Under the pieces are notes generated by a model. That model saw nothing but the letters and a program-made list of their open reading frames with translations, did no database searches and was not told the DNA's origin. A DNA stretch of 17,214 bases from a virus, in the UHGV virus genome UHGV-0135926; one strand, given 5' to 3'. The stretch's first letter is position 1. Each line of letters begins with the position of its first letter. Shown here one piece after another: positions 342-15,981 of this stretch. Position numbers and translations under genes: made by a program.

Positions 342-614
342 TTAGCTAATTTTTCGCTTATCTGTTCTTACTCTCTCCCATTCAATTCTGCCTTCTTCAC
401 GCCGCTGGTCTATATACTCAGCAAGATCCTGAATGTTGATGCAGCGCTTTGCTTTCTGCGATGTTCCTACACGATAAGTTGGGATAGGTAACTGACAGGC
501 ATTTGCTTTCGCTTCTGCTGTGTTAGGGCTCATACCGAAATACTTTTGGCATACCGCTGACAGCTCGATGTTAGGCGTGTTGAACTCAGCCATAAGTAAA
601 AACAAAGTATTCAT
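342..614 (-). CDS. PrtN-family / excisionase-like small DNA-binding protein
   Basis: 90-aa ORF with ATG at 612-614 and GGAG about 8 nt upstream. Sequence (…FGMSPNTAEAKANACQLPIPTYRVGTSQKAKRCINIQDLAEYID…) resembles the pyocin-activator PrtN / Xis-like family from memory. Last gene of the leftward operon. Confidence 0.55.
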   Translation of the reverse strand: MNTLFLLMAEFNTPNIELSAVCQKYFGMSPNTAEAKANACQLPIPTYRVGTSQKAKRCINIQDLAEYIDQRREEGRIEWERVRTDKRKIS

Positions 615-652
615 AGACGTTCTCCATACAACCTGGCTGCACCCAGGGGAAA

Positions 653-1225
653 TTACAGGTCGCTGCTGGTGGCCGGAATCAACTTCTGCCAGATCGCGGA
701 CACGTATTTTGCTTGATGTCGCGCATCGGCCAGTGCGTTATGTGCAACCCCATCGAATGGCATATCTCGCTTTGGATCGAAACCCACCACTCTGCCTAAT
801 GTGACGATGGTTCTGACGTCGTGATCGTTCCAAAATTGCCACGGGCAAACCTGGCCGGCGCGCTCATATGCGCCGCGCAATATAACGTTGTCGAAAGTAG
901 CTCCATTGCCCCAAACTTTTAAATATTTTGGGTTATCAGAATGCCGATTAATGAAATGGCTCAGTTCAGATAGGGCAGACGATATCGGCATCGCATCATC
1001 AACACAGATTGCTGATCGTGCTTCTGAGCTTTGTCCTAACCACCACAGAATAGTGTCACCATCCGGCACCGCTCCCTGCTCCATAGCGCTTTCAAGGTTA
1101 ACGGCGGTGTAAAACTCCTGACCCAATTCACCGCTTTGCGGATCGAAGAATACGGCACCAATGGAGACGATAGGGGCATTCGGTTTTTTGCCCATGGATT
1201 CAAGGTCGATCATTAAGTTGTTCAC
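653..1225 (-). CDS. DEDDh-type 3'-5' exonuclease (DnaQ-like fold, phage-associated)
   Basis: 190 aa. Motifs IDLESMG (Exo I, D-x-E), WGNGATFD (Exo II) and HNALADA (Exo III, H…D) are present. GTG start at 1223-1225 lies 1 nt after the stop of the upstream gene, with AGGAG upstream. Confidence 0.7.
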   Translation of the reverse strand: MNNLMIDLESMGKKPNAPIVSIGAVFFDPQSGELGQEFYTAVNLESAMEQGAVPDGDTILWWLGQSSEARSAICVDDAMPISSALSELSHFINRHSDNPKYLKVWGNGATFDNVILRGAYERAGQVCPWQFWNDHDVRTIVTLGRVVGFDPKRDMPFDGVAHNALADARHQAKYVSAIWQKLIPATSSDL

Positions 1226-1226
1226 G

Positions 1227-2153
1227 TTAAATATTCTCCTGTTTTGGTGCTGCTTTAATCATTGCTGCCCAGCACAACTCAGCCCGGCGCGCCGCCTGGC
1301 GGCATCCACTCAATGCTTCGTATTCCTTCCACTCTTTTTCATCGCTGAAATGCGGATCTGGAACCGATTCGAAGCCGTTAATAATCATGTCCTCGGTCGG
1401 AACGATAGGAACCAGTACGTAACCATCCGGAGTAACCGGAGAGTTGCCCGAGATTGATTCCTGCAATCGTTCCAGCCTCACGTATTCCTGTACGCAGGCG
1501 CCTGAGTAATTATTAAGCCATATAGCAGCCTTTTCTGGTTCTGGCGTATACGTAACTACGTCGCCCGGCTTCCAGCATAGTGCGTACAAGTCGGCGACTG
1601 GTTTAAATTGGGTTTCAGCAAACTTGCAAGCCTGGAGCATGCTTTCTTCGAATTCTGCGACCTGTGGGTCTACTGGCGTAGATAAGTCGCGAACCGCATC
1701 GCCAGCTTGGAGCATGGCGGCGCGGCAGGCGTTCCATCCTCTGACCTCTGCGATTGCAGCTACAGCGTCTATTGCATGCATTTTCGACGCTTCTGGCATC
1801 GGCTTTTCATCTGGCAATACTGGCTCTGCGTTCCTCGATGCCAGCACCTCATCAATCACCTTCAACATATCTGCGAGAATGTAAGCTCTGTTCCCGCCGT
1901 TTGAGTACTGGGTATCATGCTGCAGGTGGTCGCGTATTTGGTGCAGGCGATCGAGTGATACAGGACCGTGCGACGGGTGGTTGTTAGTTGATTTAGAGAA
2001 ATTTCCCCGTTCGTTAATTAAATTACGATGAGTACGCAATTCTCGTAATGCTGAAATTATCTGTGAGAATTTCTCGTCATGAGGCAATGGACCAGAAGAA
2101 TTTACCGCTGATTTAATCAGGCTATCTAACTGCTCATTGGTTATTTTTTCCAT
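1227..2153 (-). CDS. Hypothetical protein (308 aa), no recognisable domain
   Basis: Long ORF. Start chosen at ATG 2151-2153 (MEKITNEQ…), which has AAGGAG 6 nt upstream and overlaps the stop (2153-2155) of the upstream gene. The track's longer start at 2174 has no RBS. Confidence 0.6.
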   Translation of the reverse strand: MEKITNEQLDSLIKSAVNSSGPLPHDEKFSQIISALRELRTHRNLINERGNFSKSTNNHPSHGPVSLDRLHQIRDHLQHDTQYSNGGNRAYILADMLKVIDEVLASRNAEPVLPDEKPMPEASKMHAIDAVAAIAEVRGWNACRAAMLQAGDAVRDLSTPVDPQVAEFEESMLQACKFAETQFKPVADLYALCWKPGDVVTYTPEPEKAAIWLNNYSGACVQEYVRLERLQESISGNSPVTPDGYVLVPIVPTEDMIINGFESVPDPHFSDEKEWKEYEALSGCRQAARRAELCWAAMIKAAPKQENI

Positions 2154-2614
2154 TACCTTCTCCTTATTTCCCAAAGAACGCGTGTAACACCACCATTTCC
2201 TACCGGGTCTCGCTTATCTTTCAGTGCAACGCTTGATGCTGCCCACCCTTTTCTCGCGGGAAGTTCCTTAACCCGGACAAAACCAGCCGCGCGCAGCGAT
2301 GCCCCGGATTCATCCGCTTGGGTGTAGGTTATGCAGCGCTGATAACCCATAGCCTTTGCTGCCCGCCAGATTGCTCCATAAAGAGCGCTGTTAGCGTTGC
2401 GCTCTCCAGTTGTGCAAGTACGGTTAACCTCCAGAGTAAGGCCATCATCGAAATTCCTGGCTATTGGTCTTCCTGCGGTAGCTACGCCAATCAATTCACC
2501 ATCAGAATTTTTCAGACCGATACTAAATTTATGTCCTGTTGGCGGTTTGTTGTGACGGTGATGTTTCGCCACAAATTCTTTGGCAACTTTTAAGGTGATT
2601 GGTGAAATCTGCAT
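2153..2614 (-). CDS. Hypothetical protein (153 aa); possible acyltransferase-like fold (weak)
   Basis: ORF with ATG at 2612-2614, GGGGGAG upstream and its stop overlapping the next start. Family not confidently recognised; the C-terminal …ADESGASLRAAGF… is loosely GNAT-like. Confidence 0.55.
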   Translation of the reverse strand: MQISPITLKVAKEFVAKHHRHNKPPTGHKFSIGLKNSDGELIGVATAGRPIARNFDDGLTLEVNRTCTTGERNANSALYGAIWRAAKAMGYQRCITYTQADESGASLRAAGFVRVKELPARKGWAASSVALKDKRDPVGNGGVTRVLWEIRRR

Positions 2615-5870: not shown

Positions 5871-6545
5871 TTAAGGCTTATGCCTGTGCCGTCGTGGTTT
5901 TCCTGAGAAAACAACGGTGCCAATAATCGAGCAATTACCATTGATCCTAATATATGGCTCTGGCCAGTTGGCGTTTAAAGCTTTAAGAAACTTTTCGCCA
6001 CTATCTTCTATTAATCGTTTAAACGTCGTTTCGCCAGAATCATGCATTAAAGCAATAACATCATCGCCATGAGAAGCTGCAACCTCTGGATCTACAAAAA
6101 TCATATCGCCAGGACGATACTCATCGATCATTGAATCACCAATGACGCGTAAGATATAAGTCATTGGCCCGCACGGAACGGGACAAGGATATGTTTCTAC
6201 ACTACTCAAATCTACCTCTGCATAACCAGCATCCGTCCATGCTCCGGCTTGCACCCAGGATATAACCGGGACCATCGTAATTGATCTTTTAACGTCTGAA
6301 ACGTCGGGTGATTTAGCAATGTTGGTAGTTTGATGTTCGGTATCTAGCCAACCTTGAGGCAAGTCAAAACATTTTTCGATATGCCTTGCCATAGCGTCAC
6401 CAATACCTTTGGTGGCACCTTCACCCATAAACCGGCTGGTTTGTGTAGGTTCACGATCGATCATGTTAGCGAAGTAGCTATTACCCCCAACACCATCTCT
6501 CAATTTTCGGGCGTTTAATCGCCTGATTTCCTGGATAGTTTTCAT
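5871..6545 (-). CDS. cI: CI-type repressor with C-terminal LexA-like S24 peptidase domain (SOS-cleavable)
   Basis: C-terminal half resembles P22 C2 / lambda CI (ISWVQAG…, RVIGDSM with catalytic Ser, TFKRL with catalytic Lys, …INGNCSIIGTVV). N-terminal XRE-like HTH. ATG at 6543-6545 chosen over the track's TTG at 6560 because the putative pRM places the TSS on that ATG. Confidence 0.85.
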   Translation of the reverse strand: MKTIQEIRRLNARKLRDGVGGNSYFANMIDREPTQTSRFMGEGATKGIGDAMARHIEKCFDLPQGWLDTEHQTTNIAKSPDVSDVKRSITMVPVISWVQAGAWTDAGYAEVDLSSVETYPCPVPCGPMTYILRVIGDSMIDEYRPGDMIFVDPEVAASHGDDVIALMHDSGETTFKRLIEDSGEKFLKALNANWPEPYIRINGNCSIIGTVVFSGKPRRHRHKP

Positions 6546-6551
6546 CAGCAA

Positions 6552-6630
6552 ATTAAACAATGTGTACCTCTATGGTACAAGTACCTTGTGGGTTCATTTC
6601 TTTCGTGTAATATGTACACAGGAGGTACAT
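6552..6630. promoter_or_regulatory. OR region: three 19-bp operators, pRM (leftward) and pR (rightward)
   Basis: Operators GTGTACC-tctat-GGTACAA (6562-6580), AAGTACC-ttgtg-GGTTCAT (6579-6597), ATGTACA-cagga-GGTACAT (6612-6630). pRM on minus: TTGTAC (6575-6580), 17 nt, TTTAAT (6552-6557), 6 nt, then ATG. pR on plus: TTGTGG (6586-6591), 16 nt, TAATAT (6608-6613). Confidence 0.55.
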
Positions 6631-6633
6631 ATT

Positions 6634-6834
6634 ATGAAAGAGTATTGGGACTCTTTAACTAAAGAGCAGCAAGGCGAATTAGCTGGAAGCGTAGGTTCCA
6701 CGCCTGGCTACCTGCGTTTAGTTTTCAATGGCTACAAAAAGGCAGGTTTTTCCTTGGCTAAAAAGCTGGAGGAAACAACTGCTGGGATTATCAGCAAATC
6801 TGATCTTCGTCCTGACATTTACCCTAAACAGTAG
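6634..6834 (+). CDS. cro: Cro-like / YdaS-like small HTH regulator
   Basis: 66 aa from ATG 6634 with GGAGG 8 nt upstream; the track's upstream extension lacks an RBS and overlaps the operators. Ends …LRPDIYPKQ, typical of YdaS/Cro-like proteins. Divergent from the repressor. Confidence 0.75.
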   Translation: MKEYWDSLTKEQQGELAGSVGSTPGYLRLVFNGYKKAGFSLAKKLEETTAGIISKSDLRPDIYPKQ

Positions 6835-6877
6835 CAGACGAGCTGATTTTTATAACCACAGAATTAAGGGGTTAACC

Positions 6878-7429
6878 GTGGGTAACGAACCTATTTGGAA
6901 AGTCGAACGTCAGCCAGCCTGGCTGGTGGCGGCGATAAAAAAAACGATCACCGATCTACCTGGTGGTTATGCCGAGGCGGCGGAATGGTTGGGCGTGACA
7001 GAGAACGCATTGTTTAACCGCCTTCGTGTTGACGGCGATCAGATCTTCCCGCTGGGCTGGGCAATGGTTTTACAACGTGCTGGTGGTTCAACTCATATCG
7101 CTGATGCCGTTGCGCGCCATTCTCAGGGCGTATTTGTACCGCTGGCAGATGTTGATGATCTGGATAACGCCGATATCAACCAGCGCCTGATGGAGTCCAT
7201 CGAATGGATAGGCCGTCATTCTAATTTTGTACGTAAAGCCACGGCTGATGGGGTGATTGACGCAGATGAGCGCGCTCAGATTGAGGAAAACAGCTATCAG
7301 GTTATTGCGAAGTTCCAGGAGCACGTAGCGCTTCTTTATCGAGTTTTTTGTGTCGCTGAAAAGAGTGACGCCCGCGAGTGTGCAGCTCCGGGCGCCTTGG
7401 CGAACAACTCTTCGAGTATGGAGAAATAA
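6878..7429 (+). CDS. YdaT-like protein at the CII position
   Basis: Start chosen at GTG 6878 (AGGGG 6 nt upstream); the frame has no Met before this point that does not overlap cro. Follows the YdaS-like gene as in the Rac prophage ydaS-ydaT pair. Confidence 0.55.
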   Translation: MGNEPIWKVERQPAWLVAAIKKTITDLPGGYAEAAEWLGVTENALFNRLRVDGDQIFPLGWAMVLQRAGGSTHIADAVARHSQGVFVPLADVDDLDNADINQRLMESIEWIGRHSNFVRKATADGVIDADERAQIEENSYQVIAKFQEHVALLYRVFCVAEKSDARECAAPGALANNSSSMEK

Positions 7430-7781: not shown

Positions 7782-8628
7782 ATTAACCGGCTACGTATGG
7801 GATGGTTGCGCGGCGTCGGGCATGAAGTTGTCTAGTGTCGCGATCATGGCCCGCCTCGCTGATTTCAGCAGCGATGAGGGCGTGTGCTGGCCGTCCATTG
7901 AAACTATTGCTCGCCAGCTTGGCGCAGGGCCGAGCACTATCAGAACGGCAATCGCTAAGCTTGAAAAAGATGGCTGGCTCACGCGTACACAGCGCCGTAA
8001 TGGTAACCGTAATGCTTCGAACGTGTACCGCCTGAATGTGGCGAAACTTCAGGCTGCCGCATTTTCTCAACTGTCAGATTCTGACACGTCAAAATCTGAC
8101 GCATCAAAATTTGACGCCTCAAAAACTGACCCGTCGAAATCCGTCAAAAACGGCGGTTTTGACCCGTCAGAATCTGGCGGGGATCCGTCAGTAAAATCAA
8201 AACAAGATCCACAAGTAACTTCAAAACCCTCTTGTCCGGTTGCGGCGCAACCAGACCCTGAAGTCGTGATTACTGATCAGGCAATTTTGGTTCTGACCCA
8301 TTTGAACAAGATCAGCGGATCCCGGTATCAGAAATCAAAAACATCCCTGGAGAACATCCGTGCCCGACTGCGTGAGGGATACAGCGTTGCAGACCTGCAA
8401 CTGGTTATCGACCTGAAGCATGAGCACTGGCACGAGAACGACGAGCAGTACCAGTACATGCGCCCGGAAACGCTGTTCGGCCCGAAGAAATTCGAGAGCT
8501 ATCTGCAAAGCGCTACCCGCTGGGAGCAGAAGGGACGGCCTAAACGCGCTGACTGGGGTGCGAAAAAGCGCGATGTGATGGCTTTTGGTCCGGTTGATAC
8601 AACGATTCCAGAGGGGTTCAGAGGATGA
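7771..8628 (+). CDS. Replication initiator (lambda O-like role): N-terminal HTH, iteron-encoded repeat linker, conserved phage C-terminal domain
   Basis: 285 aa; the internal peptide repeat SDSDTSKSDASKFDASKTDPSKS is encoded by the iteron array. Position downstream of the CII analogue. Stop overlaps the next start (ATGA). Confidence 0.8.
   Translation: MSTKLTGYVWDGCAASGMKLSSVAIMARLADFSSDEGVCWPSIETIARQLGAGPSTIRTAIAKLEKDGWLTRTQRRNGNRNASNVYRLNVAKLQAAAFSQLSDSDTSKSDASKFDASKTDPSKSVKNGGFDPSESGGDPSVKSKQDPQVTSKPSCPVAAQPDPEVVITDQAILVLTHLNKISGSRYQKSKTSLENIRARLREGYSVADLQLVIDLKHEHWHENDEQYQYMRPETLFGPKKFESYLQSATRWEQKGRPKRADWGAKKRDVMAFGPVDTTIPEGFRG
8071..8198. repeat. Origin-type iteron array inside the replication gene (15-bp period)
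   Basis: Tandem TGACACGTCAAAATC (8082-8096), TGACGCATCAAAATT (8097-8111), TGACGCCTCAAAAAC (8112-8126), TGACCCGTCGAAATC (8127-8141), then degenerate copies to 8198. Followed by an A-rich stretch. Confidence 0.7.
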
Positions 8629-9506
8629 CGTTAAACAAATATTGCCAGTCGCTGGCGGAACTACGTAGCCAACCAGCCCACGAATTGAAAGAAGTTGGCG
8701 ATCAGTGGCGAACACCGGATCTGCTTTTTTGGGGGATCAACGCGCTATTTGGTCCATTAGTTCTGGACTTGTTTGCTGACGCCGACAACGCGAAATGCCC
8801 GGCATGGTACACCGCCGAAGATAACGCGCTGACGCAGGACTGGTCTGAACGTCTGGCAGAACTGGGTGGCGCTGGCTATGGCAACCCACCGTATAGCCGT
8901 TCGCAGTACCACGAGAAACAGGCGATCACTGGTATGACGCACATCATGAAATACGCAGCAGCCCAGCGCGAGAAGGGCGGTCGCTATGTATTCCTGATAA
9001 AAGCCGCGCCGAGTGAAACGTGGTGGCCGGAAGATGCCGATCACATTGTATTCATTCGCGGGCGCATTGGGTTCGATCTGCCTGTGTGGTTTGTACCTGC
9101 TGACGAAAAACAGAAACCCACCAGCGCGTTTTTTGCCGGTGCCATAGCTGTATTCGATAAGTCGTGGCGTGGTGAGCGGTTCAGCTATATCAACCGCACA
9201 GAACTGGAGGCAAAAGGTCGGGAATTTATGGCGCTGGCTCAATTCGCTGTTGGTAAAGAGCAAACAATTGCAGTGCGGACAGCCCAGGAACCAGTAATAC
9301 CATCGGAAACTGAGTCACGTATCTGGCCTCTAGAGGTTGGTCTGGTGTTTAACCAGGTGGAAGGCGTTGACGTATTGAGTGAGGCTCAGCAGAACAAGCT
9401 GAAAGCCAACATCAATCAACTCTGGCTGGAACGAACGGCCACCAGCGAAATTATTACAATTGCGCGTGGTCTTGTTGGCAGCATGCAGGGGGTAACCCAT
9501 GCGTGA
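8625..9506 (+). CDS. Phage Dam-family DNA N6-adenine methyltransferase
   Basis: 293 aa; catalytic NPPY motif (…GYGNPPYSRS…). Translationally coupled to both neighbours (ATGA at 8625, 8-nt overlap with the next gene). Confidence 0.8.
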   Translation: MTLNKYCQSLAELRSQPAHELKEVGDQWRTPDLLFWGINALFGPLVLDLFADADNAKCPAWYTAEDNALTQDWSERLAELGGAGYGNPPYSRSQYHEKQAITGMTHIMKYAAAQREKGGRYVFLIKAAPSETWWPEDADHIVFIRGRIGFDLPVWFVPADEKQKPTSAFFAGAIAVFDKSWRGERFSYINRTELEAKGREFMALAQFAVGKEQTIAVRTAQEPVIPSETESRIWPLEVGLVFNQVEGVDVLSEAQQNKLKANINQLWLERTATSEIITIARGLVGSMQGVTHA

Positions 9507-11433
9507 GATTATCGTTGATAACTTTGCTGGTGGCGGTGGCGCATCAACGGGTATTGAACTGGCGATCGGGCGCAGCGTGGATATTGCGATAAACCACGAC
9601 GAAAACGCCATTGCGATGCACAAGACGAACCACCCGGACACACTGCATTATTGTGAATCCGTATTTGACGTGGATCCGGTAGCCGCCACCGGAGGTCATC
9701 CTGTCGGACTGGCATGGTTTAGCCCGGACTGCCGACACTTCTCGAAGGCAAAAGGCGCAAAGCCTGTGAAAAAAGAGATACGCGGTCTGGCCTGGATTGT
9801 TCTGCGTTGGGCACTGGCAAAGCGACCGCGCGTGATGATGCTGGAGAACGTGGAAGAGTTCAAAACGTGGGGACCGCTGCTGGCCGATGAAATGCGTCCG
9901 GATCCTGCCCGCACTGGCGAAACATTCAATGCATTTGTCGGCATGCTGTCCACTGGCATTCCTGCTGATCACCCGGCACTGGCTGAGGTTTGTGAGTTTC
10001 TGTCTATCGAAAGAGGTAGCGAGCAGGCACAAAAGCTGGTGGATGGGCTGGGATATGATGTTGATTATCGCGAACTACGTGCGTGTGATTACGGCGCGCC
10101 GACGATCCGCAAACGCTTCTTCATGGTTATGCGTTGCGATGGTTGCCCAATCCAGTGGCCTGCTATTACCCATGGGGATCCTAAGTCTCTGGAGGTGCAA
10201 AGTGGCAGGCTGATGCCATGGCGTACCGCTGCGGAATGTATCGACTGGAATATTCCGGCCCTGTCCATCTTCGACCGCAAAAAACCGCTGGCGGAGAACA
10301 CTCTGAAGCGGATCGCGCGCGGCATACAGCGCTTTGTTATCGAAAGTGCGTCGCCGTTTATTGTGAAGTGCAACCACACGAGCTCAAAAAATGCGTATGA
10401 CGCTTTTCGCGGACAGTCACTGAATGAGCCATTACAGACCATTACTAAAAAACTCGGCTACGCGTTAGCCGTTCCACACCTGACAAAATTCCGCACTGGC
10501 GCAACCGGGCAGCCCCTTACCGAACCTGTTCCGACGGTAACCGCTGGCACGTCAAAACGCCCGGGCGGGAACGGGCATGCACTCGGGATTGTTGAGGCTG
10601 CACTGACGCCATTCCTGGCGGGTAATGGTGGTAGTGAATACCAGGCGAAACCGCGCCCGCTGGATAAACCTGCTCATACCATTCTGAAGCAATCCCGAGC
10701 CTGTCTGGTTGCGCCAGTGATAGCCCGCCAGTTTGGGGCCAGCGTCGGCCACCGTGCAGACGAACCGAGCGCAACCATCACCGCTGGTGGTGGCGGTAAA
10801 TCTCAACCGGTAACGCCTACGCTGATTCAGATGGGTTATGGCGAACGACCTGGGCAAGAACCGCGTGTGCTGCGACTGGATAACCCGCTGGGGACCGTTA
10901 CTGCAGGCGGAAATAAATTTGCGACGGTGAGCGCGTTCCTGGCGAAACACTACGGCGGTAACTATACGGGGCCTGGTGTCAGTATGGATGAACCCGCGCA
11001 TTCAGTGACCACTGTCGACCATCATGCGGTAGTTGCCTCTCATCTGGTGAAACTGCGTGGAACATGCCGCGACGGGCAACGCCTTGATGTGCCAATGCCA
11101 ACAATCACTGCTGGTGGCCAACACGTGGGTGAGGTACGCACATTTCTCGAGACGTATTGCGGGGAAAGTGACGATGAATGGCTGGTAACGATCGATGGGG
11201 TTAAATACCAGATCGTTGATATCGGAATGCGCATGTTGCAGCCGCATGAACTCTACAAAGCGCAGGGCTTCCCGGATGGTTACGTTATTGATCAGGACTA
11301 CCGTGGAAATCGCTATGCAAAAGATAAGCAGGTAGCCCGCTGCGGTAATGCGGTACCACCACCATTCGCCAGGGCGCTGGTGGAGGCAAATCTTCCGGAA
11401 CTGTGTGCAGTGCAACAGCAGGAGGTGGCATGA
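9499..11433 (+). CDS. DNA cytosine-5 methyltransferase with a long repeat-containing variable region
   Basis: 644 aa. Motif I FAGGGG, PC-type motif SPDCRHFS, motif VI MLENV, motif VIII TIRKRFFMV, motif IX LQPHELYKAQGFPDGY, motif X RCGNAVPPPF. Between VIII and IX there are seven tandem units with core h-[DNT]-[EKNV]-P-x-x-[TS]-[IV]-T. Confidence 0.85.
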   Translation: MREIIVDNFAGGGGASTGIELAIGRSVDIAINHDENAIAMHKTNHPDTLHYCESVFDVDPVAATGGHPVGLAWFSPDCRHFSKAKGAKPVKKEIRGLAWIVLRWALAKRPRVMMLENVEEFKTWGPLLADEMRPDPARTGETFNAFVGMLSTGIPADHPALAEVCEFLSIERGSEQAQKLVDGLGYDVDYRELRACDYGAPTIRKRFFMVMRCDGCPIQWPAITHGDPKSLEVQSGRLMPWRTAAECIDWNIPALSIFDRKKPLAENTLKRIARGIQRFVIESASPFIVKCNHTSSKNAYDAFRGQSLNEPLQTITKKLGYALAVPHLTKFRTGATGQPLTEPVPTVTAGTSKRPGGNGHALGIVEAALTPFLAGNGGSEYQAKPRPLDKPAHTILKQSRACLVAPVIARQFGASVGHRADEPSATITAGGGGKSQPVTPTLIQMGYGERPGQEPRVLRLDNPLGTVTAGGNKFATVSAFLAKHYGGNYTGPGVSMDEPAHSVTTVDHHAVVASHLVKLRGTCRDGQRLDVPMPTITAGGQHVGEVRTFLETYCGESDDEWLVTIDGVKYQIVDIGMRMLQPHELYKAQGFPDGYVIDQDYRGNRYAKDKQVARCGNAVPPPFARALVEANLPELCAVQQQEVA

Positions 11434-12513: not shown

Positions 12514-13505
12514 GAGCTCTGCTTACCCCCGAGATCGCCCATCGTATGGGGATTGTGCTGTTCCGTCCCGGTGCGGAACTGATGCACCTCTTCATGCGTG
12601 GTCGCGTTCTGCTCGAGCCTGAACCAGAAGAAATGGCGTCATTCAGTACCGGGGCTGTTCCGGCAGCCATTCAGCCGCTGGCTGATGATCCGGTAATGCG
12701 TCAGGTCTTCGAGAATGAGAGGGTTATTCAGCGTGCCGGTGGGATTTCTTCCCTTGAGCAATGGTTGAGTAATCGGTTTGTATGCCAGTGGCCACATTCA
12801 ACGTGGCACGACAAGAACTTCACAACAATGCGGCACCCACCAGGAAGCATTCGCCTGTGCTGGCATTGCGATCACACTTTGTCGGGGCAGCATACCGAAC
12901 AGCTTGCAGGTATAGCGGCCGGAAACCTGGTATCCTGGATTCTGGAAGTCATTCGGCGTGATTCTGGTTTTCCCGAGTCGCATATCCTGACGCTTCCGGA
13001 ACTGTGCTGGTGGATGGTTAGAAACGACCTGGCTGATGTTATTCCGGAAAGCGTTGCGCACAAGGGGCTACGCCTTCCGGATGAGAAGATCCGCTCGGTC
13101 ATGAGGGAAAGCGACATTGTGCCTTCCGCGTCTGCAACCAGCCTCGTGCAGGAGAAGGCGAAGAAGATCCTAACGCTCTCTGTTGATCCGGAGTCGCCAG
13201 AGTCTTTCATGCTCAGGCCAAAGCGACGCCGCTGGGTAAATGAGACGTACACCCGCTGGGTTAAAACACAACCCTGTGAGTGTTGCCGACGGCCAGCAGA
13301 TGATCCGCACCATATCGTAGGGCACGGTATGGGTGGTACAGCAACAAAAGCCCATGACCTCTTCGTGATCCCTCTGTGCAGAGAGTGCCACGACGAGTTA
13401 CACGCCGATGTACCAGCATTCGAGCAGAAGCATGGTACGCAGCTTGAGCTGCTACTGCGTTTTATGGATCGGGCGCTGGCGATCGGCGTAATTGCGAAAG
13501 CTTAA
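12510..13505 (+). CDS. DUF968 / YdfU-like protein with C-terminal Cys/His HNH-like motif
   Basis: GTG at 12510-12512 overlaps the upstream TGA (GTGA). C-terminal …CECCRRP…HHIVGHGMGG…PLCRECHDELH… resembles the Qin-prophage YdfU family, which sits next to QuuQ in E. coli. Confidence 0.6.
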   Translation: MRALLTPEIAHRMGIVLFRPGAELMHLFMRGRVLLEPEPEEMASFSTGAVPAAIQPLADDPVMRQVFENERVIQRAGGISSLEQWLSNRFVCQWPHSTWHDKNFTTMRHPPGSIRLCWHCDHTLSGQHTEQLAGIAAGNLVSWILEVIRRDSGFPESHILTLPELCWWMVRNDLADVIPESVAHKGLRLPDEKIRSVMRESDIVPSASATSLVQEKAKKILTLSVDPESPESFMLRPKRRRWVNETYTRWVKTQPCECCRRPADDPHHIVGHGMGGTATKAHDLFVIPLCRECHDELHADVPAFEQKHGTQLELLLRFMDRALAIGVIAKA

Positions 13506-13520
13506 ACGTATGGAGACCGT

Positions 13521-14351
13521 ATGAACCTGGATAATGTACTGAAATTTTTTGCGCCGAAAGGTATGCACATATCAGATACCAGCAGAGCGACAGCCAGTGA
13601 ACAACTGACGGTTACTGATGTAATGGCTGCACTGGGGATGACTCAGGCCGATGCGGGGATAGGCCTGGCAATGTTTCTGGGCAAAGCTGGTATCAGCAGC
13701 CAGGACAGGGAGGCGTCAATAGCTTGGCTAACGGAGTACGCGAAAGAGCATGCGCCCATGGCCATTCGTAAAGCGTCAGGGAAAAAGTTTCCCCTCTGCA
13801 TGCGTATTCTTGCCCGGTTTGCCTATAACGATTATTCCTCATCAGCCGCTGATAGCGTGGCATGCCCAAAATGTAGTGGTAAAGGGTTGCTTACAACTAC
13901 TAAAACCGTGACTAAAAGTCATTACACAATGCGATTGCCACAATGGGCAAAAGACCTGAGACAGTCACCATCTGACTTTGAGGTTAAGCGCGATGTAACT
14001 GACACTGATCATACGTTATGTTCCCGCTGCCATGGCACAGGAAAGTTAAGTAAGCGATGCCAGTGCGGCGGCACAGGTAAGACTATTGACCGTAAAGCGA
14101 CAGAACTGCAGGGCGTACCGGTTTACAAAGAATGTAAGCGCTGTGAAGGTCGGGGATACAGCAGGCCAAAATCATCGGTTGCCTATCGAGGTGTTTTTTC
14201 TGAGTTGCCGAGTCTGCCTGACCGAACGTGGCGTTATAGCTGGAAACCATTCTATGAAAGCCTGGTGACCAAATGTTTCCAGGAGGAGAGTTATTCAAGC
14301 TCTCAACTGAATCGGGTGACTAAAAGTGAAGATGTGATAAATATCGCGTAA
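13521..14351 (+). CDS. Q: Late-gene antiterminator Q (QuuQ-like) with four CxxCxGxG-type zinc-finger motifs
   Basis: 276 aa; GGAG 5 nt before the ATG. Position immediately upstream of a pR'/tR' unit and the lysis genes. Motifs CPKCSGKG, CSRCHGTGK, CQCGGTGK, CKRCEGRGY. Family assigned by context and size rather than a clear sequence match. Confidence 0.6.
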   Translation: MNLDNVLKFFAPKGMHISDTSRATASEQLTVTDVMAALGMTQADAGIGLAMFLGKAGISSQDREASIAWLTEYAKEHAPMAIRKASGKKFPLCMRILARFAYNDYSSSAADSVACPKCSGKGLLTTTKTVTKSHYTMRLPQWAKDLRQSPSDFEVKRDVTDTDHTLCSRCHGTGKLSKRCQCGGTGKTIDRKATELQGVPVYKECKRCEGRGYSRPKSSVAYRGVFSELPSLPDRTWRYSWKPFYESLVTKCFQEESYSSSQLNRVTKSEDVINIA

Positions 14352-14367
14352 TTTAGCGTCATGATGT

Positions 14368-14408
14368 TTGCAATGTTGCCGTTTTTGTGTATATTTGACA
14401 TTAACGAT
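14368..14408 (+). promoter_or_regulatory. Late promoter pR' with promoter-proximal pause element
   Basis: TTGCAA (14368-14373), 16 nt, TATATT (14390-14395), then tgacattAACGATGGG (14403-14411). Lambda pR', as I recall it, is TAAATT-tgactc-AACGATGGG with the AACGAT pause-inducing element. Confidence 0.55.
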
Positions 14409-14432
14409 GGGCATTGTATGTTCAGAGTTAAG

Positions 14433-14459
14433 AAACCCGCCACCGAGCGGGTTTTTTTT
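14433..14459 (+). terminator. tR'-type intrinsic terminator
   Basis: Stem aaacccgc (14433-14440) / gcgggttt (14447-14454), loop caccga, followed by a T8 run. Confidence 0.75.
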
Positions 14460-14493
14460 GCACTAGGCCATTCAATCTACGTAAAAATCAATG

Positions 14494-14502
14494 TGTTACA
14501 AT
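14494..14502 (+). promoter_or_regulatory. Candidate extended -10 promoter for the moron gene
   Basis: TGtTACAAT (TG at 14494-14495, hexamer 14497-14502) about 36 nt upstream of the ATG at 14538. No convincing -35. Confidence 0.3.
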
Positions 14503-14537
14503 AGCCGCAAGCAAAACGACAACACAAAGGCGGCATA

Positions 14538-14780
14538 ATGAAATTAACATCTGTTCATATCGAAACTCTGAGTCGCGCAAGCGCTCTTGGACCACGTGAA
14601 ACAATTCAATCTTCTGATCTTCCTCACATTCCAGCGGAAGCGGTGAATTTTGCTATTTCTGATCTCGCTGAGTTGGGTCTGGTAAATGCTGTGCAGAGTA
14701 CGTCTGATTGTGACGACAGCTGGATAGTGAATAGAATTACGTCTAAAGGGAATAGCTATTTAATTGATCTTGAGTCTTAA
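14538..14780 (+). CDS. Moron-encoded small acidic protein (80 aa), function unknown
   Basis: ATG 14538 with AAAGG 7 nt upstream. AT-richer than flanking genes. Sits between tR' and the holin gene, with its own candidate promoter and terminator. Confidence 0.55.
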   Translation: MKLTSVHIETLSRASALGPRETIQSSDLPHIPAEAVNFAISDLAELGLVNAVQSTSDCDDSWIVNRITSKGNSYLIDLES

Positions 14781-14817
14781 CTATCTGATTAATAAATAGG
14801 TACACCACATTTATTAA

Positions 14818-14840
14818 GGCTGCCTTCTGGTGGCCTTTTT
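14818..14840 (+). terminator. Candidate intrinsic terminator after the moron gene
   Basis: RNA stem GGCUGCC / GGUGGCC (two G-U pairs), loop UUCU, followed by UUUUU (14836-14840). Confidence 0.45.
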
Positions 14841-15021
14841 CATATTCAGGGCTCACTGACGGACGGCTCATAACCCAATCCGACAGGCGCTTGCGCAGAG
14901 CCCGTTCTGATTCAGGATCACGGGAATCATCCTCGATACGCATTGTTGATAAATCCAGCCCGTGAAGCCTGATCCTCCTTTCATCACACAGCGCCATCCG
15001 AACTATCGGAGGTGAGAGACC

Positions 15022-15357
15022 ATGAAAATGCACAACGACCCTCACTCCTGGACGGAGTTAATTGAGTTACTTCATAGCTGGTGGCGCGGTGATACGCCAA
15101 TGGGTGCCGTCCTTTTATCGGTAGCGATGGCTGTACTGCGAATTGCGTATGTCGGCGGTGGCTGGAAAAAGATGGTGCTGGAAGGGTTGATGTGTGGCGC
15201 CATGACGCTGACGGCTGTTTCCGCACTCGAGTATTTCAACCTTCCACAGTCTCTTTCCATCGCTATCGGTGGCGCGCTGGGTTTCGTTGGCGTTGAGCAG
15301 GTGCGCTCAATGGCCACGCGTGTTTTCAACGTTCGCTTTGGTGGCGACGCCAAGTAA
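15022..15357 (+). CDS. Class I holin (lambda S-like) with dual-start motif
   Basis: N-terminal M-K-M dual start, three predicted transmembrane segments, charged C-terminus, GGAGG upstream. First gene of the lysis cassette. Confidence 0.8.
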   Translation: MKMHNDPHSWTELIELLHSWWRGDTPMGAVLLSVAMAVLRIAYVGGGWKKMVLEGLMCGAMTLTAVSALEYFNLPQSLSIAIGGALGFVGVEQVRSMATRVFNVRFGGDAK

Positions 15358-15366
15358 GGGATCCCC

Positions 15367-15981
15367 ATGAACCAACAACAATTTCAGCAGGCGGCTGGTA
15401 TCAGCGCCGGGCTTTCTGCACGCTGGTTTCTGCACATTGATGCGGCAATGAAAGAGTTTGGAATTACAGCAGTTAACGATCAGGCCATGTTCATTGCACA
15501 AGTTGGGCATGAATCTGCTGGTTTTACCTCGCTGGTCGAGAGCTTCAACTACTCGGTAGACGGGCTGAAGAAAACCTTTGGTAAGCGCTTGACGCCGTAC
15601 CAGTGCGAAATACTGGGGCGTGTCGATGGTAAACAGGTCGCTCACCAGCCACAAATAGCCAATCTGGTTTACGGTGACCGTATGGGGAATAACAGCCAGG
15701 GTGACGGCTGGAAATATCGCGGTCGTGGCCTGCTTCAAATCACCGGCCGCGAGAACTACACCAAATGCGGTTCGGCGCTGAAGCTTGACCTTGTCAGTAC
15801 GCCAGAACTTCTGACGCAAGAGCGACATGCGGCTCGTTCGGCGGCGTGGTACTTCACCATGCGTGGTTGTCTGCTTTATTCGGGCGACATCGTGCGTGTC
15901 ACGCAGATCATCAATGGTGGCCAGAATGGACTGACTGACCGTAAGGTGCGTTACAGCCGGTCGCTGGCGGAGCTGTCATGA
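15367..15981 (+). CDS. Endolysin, glycoside hydrolase family 19 type
   Basis: 204 aa; GH19-like motifs FIAQVGHESAGF and LLQITGRENY. No N-terminal signal-anchor, so a canonical holin-dependent endolysin. AAGGGA upstream. Confidence 0.85.
   Translation: MNQQQFQQAAGISAGLSARWFLHIDAAMKEFGITAVNDQAMFIAQVGHESAGFTSLVESFNYSVDGLKKTFGKRLTPYQCEILGRVDGKQVAHQPQIANLVYGDRMGNNSQGDGWKYRGRGLLQITGRENYTKCGSALKLDLVSTPELLTQERHAARSAAWYFTMRGCLLYSGDIVRVTQIINGGQNGLTDRKVRYSRSLAELS

Follow-up and report, generated by a model that had tools for sequence, protein, structure and literature searches.

The window, i.e., the whole stretch of 17,214 nt analyzed here, is derived from a Citrobacter freundii lambdoid prophage, and the exact 80-aa product discussed below is on record from C. 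freundii genomes. Gene family matches revealed that it covers the early-to-late region of the prophage, including a CI-type S24 repressor (5871-6560, minus strand), a CII-like gene (6728-7429), a replication gene, RusA, Rha/Ant and DUF968 genes, the Q antiterminator (13521-14351; 276 aa; PF03589, 8.5e-47), a lambda-S-type holin (15022-15357; PF05106, 6e-32), a GH19 endolysin (15367-15981) and, last, Rz/Rz1. The early-right operon (8625-11433) harbors two side-by-side orphan DNA methyltransferase genes, the first encoding a Dam-type N6-adenine methylase of 293 aa and the second a 644-aa protein with a C5-cytosine methylase domain at its N-terminus. The early-left accessory genes (342-2614, minus strand) comprise a PrtN-like pyocin activator (342-614), an Rv2179c-like 3'-5' exoribonuclease (653-1225, minus strand) and a Mom-like protein (2153-2614, minus strand), the last being borderline at 27.0 bits against a cut-off of 27.1. 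An Rfam scan of 13400-15600 produced chance-level matches only.

The late promoter PR' was located by a promoter scan downstream of Q, at 14367-14395 on the plus strand (-35 TTTGCA, 14367-14372; -10 TATATT, 14390-14395) and is treated as context, being part of the Q module rather than of the cassette described below. Its -10 element and initial transcribed region match lambda PR' in NC_001416 (lambda TAAATTTGACTCAACGATGGG, window TATATTTGACATTAACGATGGG), and hence both the late promoter and the initial transcribed element are lambda-like; downstream of the -10 the window reads TGACATTAACGATGGG, and the lambda counterpart in the same record is TAAATT-TGACTCAACGATGGG. The 9-mer AACGATGGG (14403-14411, plus strand) is found unchanged 3' of the lambda PR' -10 and was also detected in loci L016, L017, L033 and L041. 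In lambda it corresponds to the sigma70-dependent pause and Q-loading region, and AACGAT acts in sigma-dependent pausing. An inverted repeat of 14-17 nt between the PR' spacer (14374-14390), which in lambda is the Q-binding region, and the cassette 5' UTR (14513-14535) exhibits arms of 12-14 nt that are 86-92% complementary; since it was missing, by eye, from the other-Q clade, it probably reflects chance.

Between PR' and the holin lies a gene on the plus strand (14538-14780) for an 80-aa acidic minimal winged-helix protein (pI 4.49, net charge -6). The dN/dS values of 0.15-0.48 over many homologue pairs indicate a genuine protein gene. Its reading frame is unbroken, with a length of 77-89 aa, throughout 44 protein clusters of four genera, and its length and Shine-Dalgarno site are conserved across the family. 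Among 1.84 billion representative proteins, an exhaustive search with a profile recovered 5 clusters only, and a word-seeded profile search recovered the 44 clusters at 90% identity; the homologues, all named hypothetical, come from Citrobacter, E. coli, Klebsiella and Kosakonia, and IMG/VR contained 11 loci, one of them with an identical protein. No locus was confirmed by a family-profile scan of genome contigs, and the wide family alignment was too divergent for use in pattern scans. In composition, the cassette (14420-14850) has 41.5% GC against 51.4% for the window, which places it in the lowest 1.1% of equal-sized windows, and the GC3 of its gene is 0.31 compared with 0.47-0.62 in the neighboring genes.

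The candidate sigma70 promoter of this gene consists of the extended -10 element TGTTACAAT at 14494-14502, 35 nt 5' of the ATG, and was missed by a generic promoter scan because it has no -35. The TGNTANAAT pattern occurs once in the 17-kb window and is expected 1.87 times by chance, so that the element has no significance in the single sequence. The comparison of diverged loci revealed TGnTAnAAT to be invariant in 12/12 aligned cases, 35-46 nt 5' of the ATG, and the transcript is predicted to start near 14509-14510. The extended -10 is part of a promoter block, TCAATCTACGTAAAAATCAATGTGTTACAAT (14472-14502, plus strand). Its footprint, TCAATCTACGT(A/C)AAAATCAAT(G/A)TGTTA(C/T)AAT, exhibits only a few mismatches in the E. 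coli subfamily (L016/L033), in which the protein is 47% identical to that of the window and dS is saturated. The block is thus conserved far beyond synonymous sites, and its preservation where those sites are saturated indicates constraint on more than the -10 element.

Another conserved motif, GCCATTCAA (14467-14475, plus strand; consensus GCCAYTCMA), lies in the -35 region of the cassette promoter. In an ungapped alignment of 12 loci anchored on the -10, it was conserved in 9-11 of the 12, in register and 27 nt 5' of the TG, and the terminator T-tract, GCCAYTCMA and the -10 hold their register in 11 of the 12. The GCCAYTCMA core is common to subfamilies with differing helix-3 sequences and hence does not track the protein; it could bind a host factor. 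The same observation weakened the proposal that helix 3 tracks the promoter block, and an operator search through repeats in the cassette produced short, unconvincing pairs only and no convincing palindrome. AATCAATGTGTTA, which we take to agree with the IHF consensus, overlaps the -10 and was given no weight, as the other subfamilies lack it.

The Shine-Dalgarno site was read directly as AAGGCGG (14527-14533, plus strand), leaving a gap of 7 nt between AAGG and the ATG, and the relatives have GGAGG or AGGAG at the same place. A hairpin that would sequester it, formed by GCCGC (14504-14508) and GCGGC (14530-14534), was set aside: the fold is weak (z = -1.35), its conservation is partial, and comparable pairings (CCTC/GAGG, TTCTGT/ACAGGA) were found in some clades and not in all. 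Since the 5' arm precedes the predicted cassette start, this pairing could form only in RNA read through from PR'.

Upstream, a tR'-type intrinsic terminator was identified at 14433-14459 (plus strand), with the stem AAACCCGC/GCGGGTTT, the loop CACCGA and T8. The 64-nt stretch that contains it (14402-14465) folds at -22.9 kcal/mol (z = -3.7); the terminator scan of the window did not include this hairpin among its sites. It has a counterpart in 13/13 diverged loci, 81-109 nt 5' of the ATG, where the stems differ in sequence from locus to locus (ACCCGCC/GGCGGGT, ACCTCGC/GCGAGGT). The hairpin would stop a PR' transcript at ~55 nt, and from the locus comparison it is the left end of the cassette. 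In same-Q relatives, homology to the window stops near 14419, and in different-Q relatives it begins at the upstream hairpin; because the breaks fall at these two points, the mobile unit takes in the tR'-type hairpin, which moves with the cargo module and not with the Q module.

The downstream intrinsic terminator, AAGGCTGCC-TTCT-GGTGGCCTT followed by a T-run (14816-14840, plus strand), was detected by the terminator scan, the stem spanning 14816-14837 and the T-run reaching 14840 (-13.8 kcal/mol, z = -2.8). As the scan returned 2 terminator-like sites in the window against 1.9 expected in shuffled sequence, this site also has no significance in the single sequence. Across the family it was present in 12/13 loci, 44-69 nt past the stop codon, with G-U to G-C and whole-stem changes that keep the pairing. 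It is the right end of the cassette, where it would insulate the lysis genes from the cassette promoter. In the window clade, the terminator and the TTCAGG..TCAC segment are duplicated ~66 nt apart (14816-14856 and 14883-14923); in the second copy, ACAGGCGCTTGCGCAGAGCCCGTTCTGATTCAGGATCAC, which lines up with the functional terminator found in other clades, the stem has deteriorated and the T-run is lost.

The right flank is formed by a holin leader, TTCAGGCTCACGGGAATCA...CCCGTGAAGCCTGA, common to loci with different holin families. In the window, this noncoding leader occupies 14906-14975, downstream of the cassette terminator and ahead of the holin gene, and reads TTCAGG(A/C)TCACGGGAATCA...CCCGTGAAGCCTGA, with counterparts at L018:4298-4385, L003:3283-3368 and L002:2448-2525 and also in HK225, mEp237 and about 80 E. 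coli prophages. One-nt indels argue that it is not coding. The leader is able to form a long-range stem, two variants of which (CACGGG/CCCGTG, CTGGG/CCCAG) look compensatory by eye; RNAalifold counted 0 compensatory pairs, and covariation in this stem was discarded. A minus-strand ORF of 100 codons with a GTG start (14743-15045), which overlaps the terminator, the leader and the beginning of the holin gene in antisense, was rejected as a gene, as it has no family support and carries 1-nt indels in relatives, and is probably spurious.

This arrangement recurs in 12-13 diverged loci of the four genera with protein identity down to ~30%, and the joint conservation of layout, TGnTAnAAT, stems and coding in diverged loci indicates that the cassette is more than a chance assembly. 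All homologues with a readable context lie between Q and holin, in 12 distinct contexts that include Q of the PF03589, PF06323 and PF06530/DUF1133 families and holins of the 3_1, 2_x, 8+3_7 and 3_3 families; the gene keeps a constant distance from Q, and its layout holds register with the terminator. E. coli strain 1943, which has a different Q (PF06323 type), is similar to the window over a stretch that begins at the hairpin, takes in promoter, gene and terminator, and reaches the holin. The cassette is rare: its DNA was found in 0/50,697 phage records, and among complete E. coli genomes the window type was present in 1/5426 and the E. coli type in 41/5426, from which we infer that its gene is dispensable. 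The E. coli and Kosakonia loci have a second hypothetical gene between the winged-helix gene and the holin, of 264 aa (phrog_30208) in E. coli (L033:3501-4774) and of 169 aa in Kosakonia (L041:3501-4375), the latter with its own TGGTAATAT extended -10. In E. coli the two genes may form an operon, since the hairpin between them has no T-run.

These comparisons bear on an earlier note on this DNA, which had read the locus as a moron inserted between tR' and the holin gene and had based this on an acidic 80-aa ORF, a candidate extended -10, an own hairpin/U-tract terminator and an AT content higher than in the surroundings. Every one of these elements was recovered, and the insertion is supported by unrelated cargo in close relatives. 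Where E. coli prophages have almost the same Q and PR' as the window, these are followed, past ~14419, by another terminator and by a gene for a membrane-type protein of 178 aa, and the slot in HK225 is occupied by a 136-aa minus-strand gene. Conservation in no relative, which the same note had named as part of what would speak against its reading, is the opposite of the purifying selection observed in four genera. The slot had also been pointed out as the stx site of lysogenic conversion: the position is indeed that of stx, which has been placed between Q and holin under PR' control (PMC6266700), but no sign of a toxin or a virulence factor was seen in the cassette. On these comparative grounds, 14420-14850 appears to be a genuine self-contained accessory transcription unit (moron) in a variable PR'/Q-holin slot. 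Its fidelity to this slot is best explained by recombination, as the flanks, namely the PR' initial region and the holin leader, are conserved.

The structure prediction that had been suggested for the product resulted in a confident minimal winged helix (AlphaFold2, pLDDT 89) with helices at residues 5-15, 33-45 and 69-79, a short strand/turn at 23-27 and strands at 49-53 and 62-67. The impression that the product matched nothing recognizable did not survive the searches, in which it matched phrog_32916 at 3e-19, exhibited a MarR-like fold and scored 22.7 bits with DUF2513 (PF10711), six relatives scoring 16.7-21.5. The Pfam gathering threshold of this family is 29.6 bits; these consistent matches stay below it, so that the window protein is at best a distant DUF2513 relative. 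In 7/7 family members scanned, the match reaches from helix 3 through the wing to the C-terminal helix. In the predicted model, the winged-helix core of the MarR family (H-b-H-H-b-wing-b) is present, and most top structural matches are DNA-binding regulators, with a coverage of the MarR chain of ~40% and TMt of 0.35-0.45. Only one short helix follows the wing, and neither the window protein nor its relatives had a significant match to Pfam MarR or PadR. The protein is distantly related to wHTH domains of the DUF2513/YjcQ/MarR type and is not a member of MarR. PADLOC had no match to the window protein and weak chance-level matches only to relatives, NCBIfam offered nothing usable, and a literature search for DUF2513 found nothing.

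Residues 33-62 of the window protein, comprising helix 3 and the wing, contain no Lys or Arg; the same segment is net negative by hand count in 8/8 representative members, and no conserved basic residue was observed in helix 3 across 30 family members. K/R34, K55 and K70 are common in the family, and the window clade has E34 and T55 instead.

Combining the cassette architecture with the predicted fold, we favor, at a probability of roughly 0.55, a moron cassette encoding a small lysogen-expressed regulator or adaptor that is a candidate for autoregulation. The promoter, the terminators and the read-through in this model are predictions from sequence. In the lysogen, RNA polymerase initiated at PR' would halt at the first hairpin (14459), and the cassette promoter would give rise to an mRNA of ~330 nt ending at the second terminator (14840), so that the small protein would be made with the holin silent. 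Upon induction, Q-modified polymerase would cross both terminators and the cassette gene would become the first late gene. The protein would most likely be a regulator or adaptor of small size, probably a dimer, that recognizes specific sequences; the best candidate target is the footprinted region just 5' of its own -10, which would result in autoregulation, and further host or phage targets might account for a lysogen phenotype. That the protein acts through DNA binding is a more tentative part of this proposal, to which we give somewhat less than an even chance, and for the window allele such binding is doubtful considering the lack of Lys/Arg in 33-62, the SDCDD wing tip and E34/T55.

The strongest competitor is a winged helix that does not bind DNA, the acidic protein working through protein-protein contact, for instance by titrating a DNA-binding or transcription protein of the host or of an incoming phage, with superinfection exclusion, anti-defense or modulation of a host regulator as the outcome. 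The low pI and negative charge, the basic-free helix 3 and wing of the window protein, the negative segment in the eight representatives, the missing conserved basic residue among the 30 members, and a length of only 80 aa without the MarR dimer helices all point this way. Nevertheless, an acidic overall charge is common among MarR/PadR proteins, the top structural matches are mostly DNA-binding regulators, most family members keep K/R34, K55 and K70, the footprinted promoter suggests the regulated expression typical of autoregulators, and PADLOC found no match; we therefore consider protein contact rather unlikely, as the distinctly weaker of the two readings.

Alternatively, the cassette may keep strictly to one slot because its gene serves there: the protein, expressed in the lysogen, would modulate late transcription or lysis, for instance as a safety catch on PR'/Q-loaded polymerase or by controlling when lysis occurs. 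The placement between Q and holin in all 12 readable contexts, at identities down to ~30% and among three Q and four holin families, together with the constant distance from Q and the register with the terminator, would fit such a role. Against it, the loci have structurally different Q and holin families, which makes a direct partner unlikely, the gene is missing from most lambdoid phages that share the Q or the holin, the conserved flanks offer a simpler, recombinational reason for slot fidelity, and a late function needs no promoter or terminator of its own. We accordingly judge it improbable. Slightly less probable again is a more specific version, in which the acidic winged helix of a slot-specific, lysogen-expressed modulator binds RNA polymerase, sigma70 or a PR'-proximal complex, as the N-terminal winged helix of T4 MotA binds RNA polymerase or sigma70. 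If true, this would be why homologues always lie right after PR'/tR' whatever the Q or holin, and the prophage lysis genes would be held off tightly or, alternatively, Q-dependent late expression of superinfecting lambdoid phages would be blocked.

The least plausible proposal takes the ORF for a frame that arose by chance or for the remains of a decaying gene and attributes the conserved elements to the terminators of the phage alone; it draws on single-sequence promoter and terminator pattern counts no higher than in shuffled sequence and is scarcely compatible with dN/dS well under 1 in many pairs, a frame kept intact in the 44 clusters of four genera, a conserved Shine-Dalgarno site and a fold predicted with confidence.

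The Q-to-holin slot is known for lambdoid prophage cargo that alters the host, stx being the best-known example, and morons in this slot are textbook knowledge. The cassette adds to it a family of hypothetical-protein cargo in Citrobacter, E. coli, Klebsiella and Kosakonia prophages; literature searches covering hotspots and the morons of the Q/holin region turned up no publication about the winged-helix cassette family. A small winged-helix protein is an ordinary kind of phage cargo, and the cassette poses no challenge to current understanding, nor does anything tie it to virulence. Its terminator-promoter-gene-terminator layout is unusually clean and conserved, and the promoter region is conserved beyond the needs of a -10; these two features make it a convenient small system for asking how a moron is kept insulated when the late operon around it is lethal, and which benefit a winged-helix protein of 80 residues brings to a prophage.

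Compared with known systems, the window is similar to lambda in PR' and in AACGATGGG, although its Q is a 276-aa PF03589 protein, and its first terminator lies ~30-57 nt past the predicted PR' start, whereas that of lambda lies at ~190 nt. The stand-alone winged-helix phage proteins of the DUF2513/YjcQ type belong to the same size class, have the same fold and are likewise without an assigned function. The DUF2513 model, however, has 100 positions against ~80 aa in the window protein, and a true DUF2513 protein of a related prophage (L008) is located elsewhere, between the lysis and terminase genes. Relative to MarR/PadR (MarR ~140 aa), the protein is half as long and lacks the N- and C-terminal dimerization helices, its wing tip is acidic (STSDCDDS, versus DREDRRK in ST1710), and a ligand pocket is impossible in so small a protein.

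The closest correspondence is with the lambdoid morons, a concept defined from HK97 and HK022 as an additional gene that brings a promoter and a terminator of its own. Like them, the cassette lies between genes that flank other cargo in relatives, has a factor-independent terminator and a predicted promoter of the sigma70 type, exceeds its surroundings in AT content and is placed for late expression via predicted Q read-through. It differs from them in its cargo, a tiny winged-helix protein rather than a toxin, porin or exclusion protein, in bringing its own PR'-proximal terminator, and in keeping to one slot while the Q and holin modules around it are exchanged.
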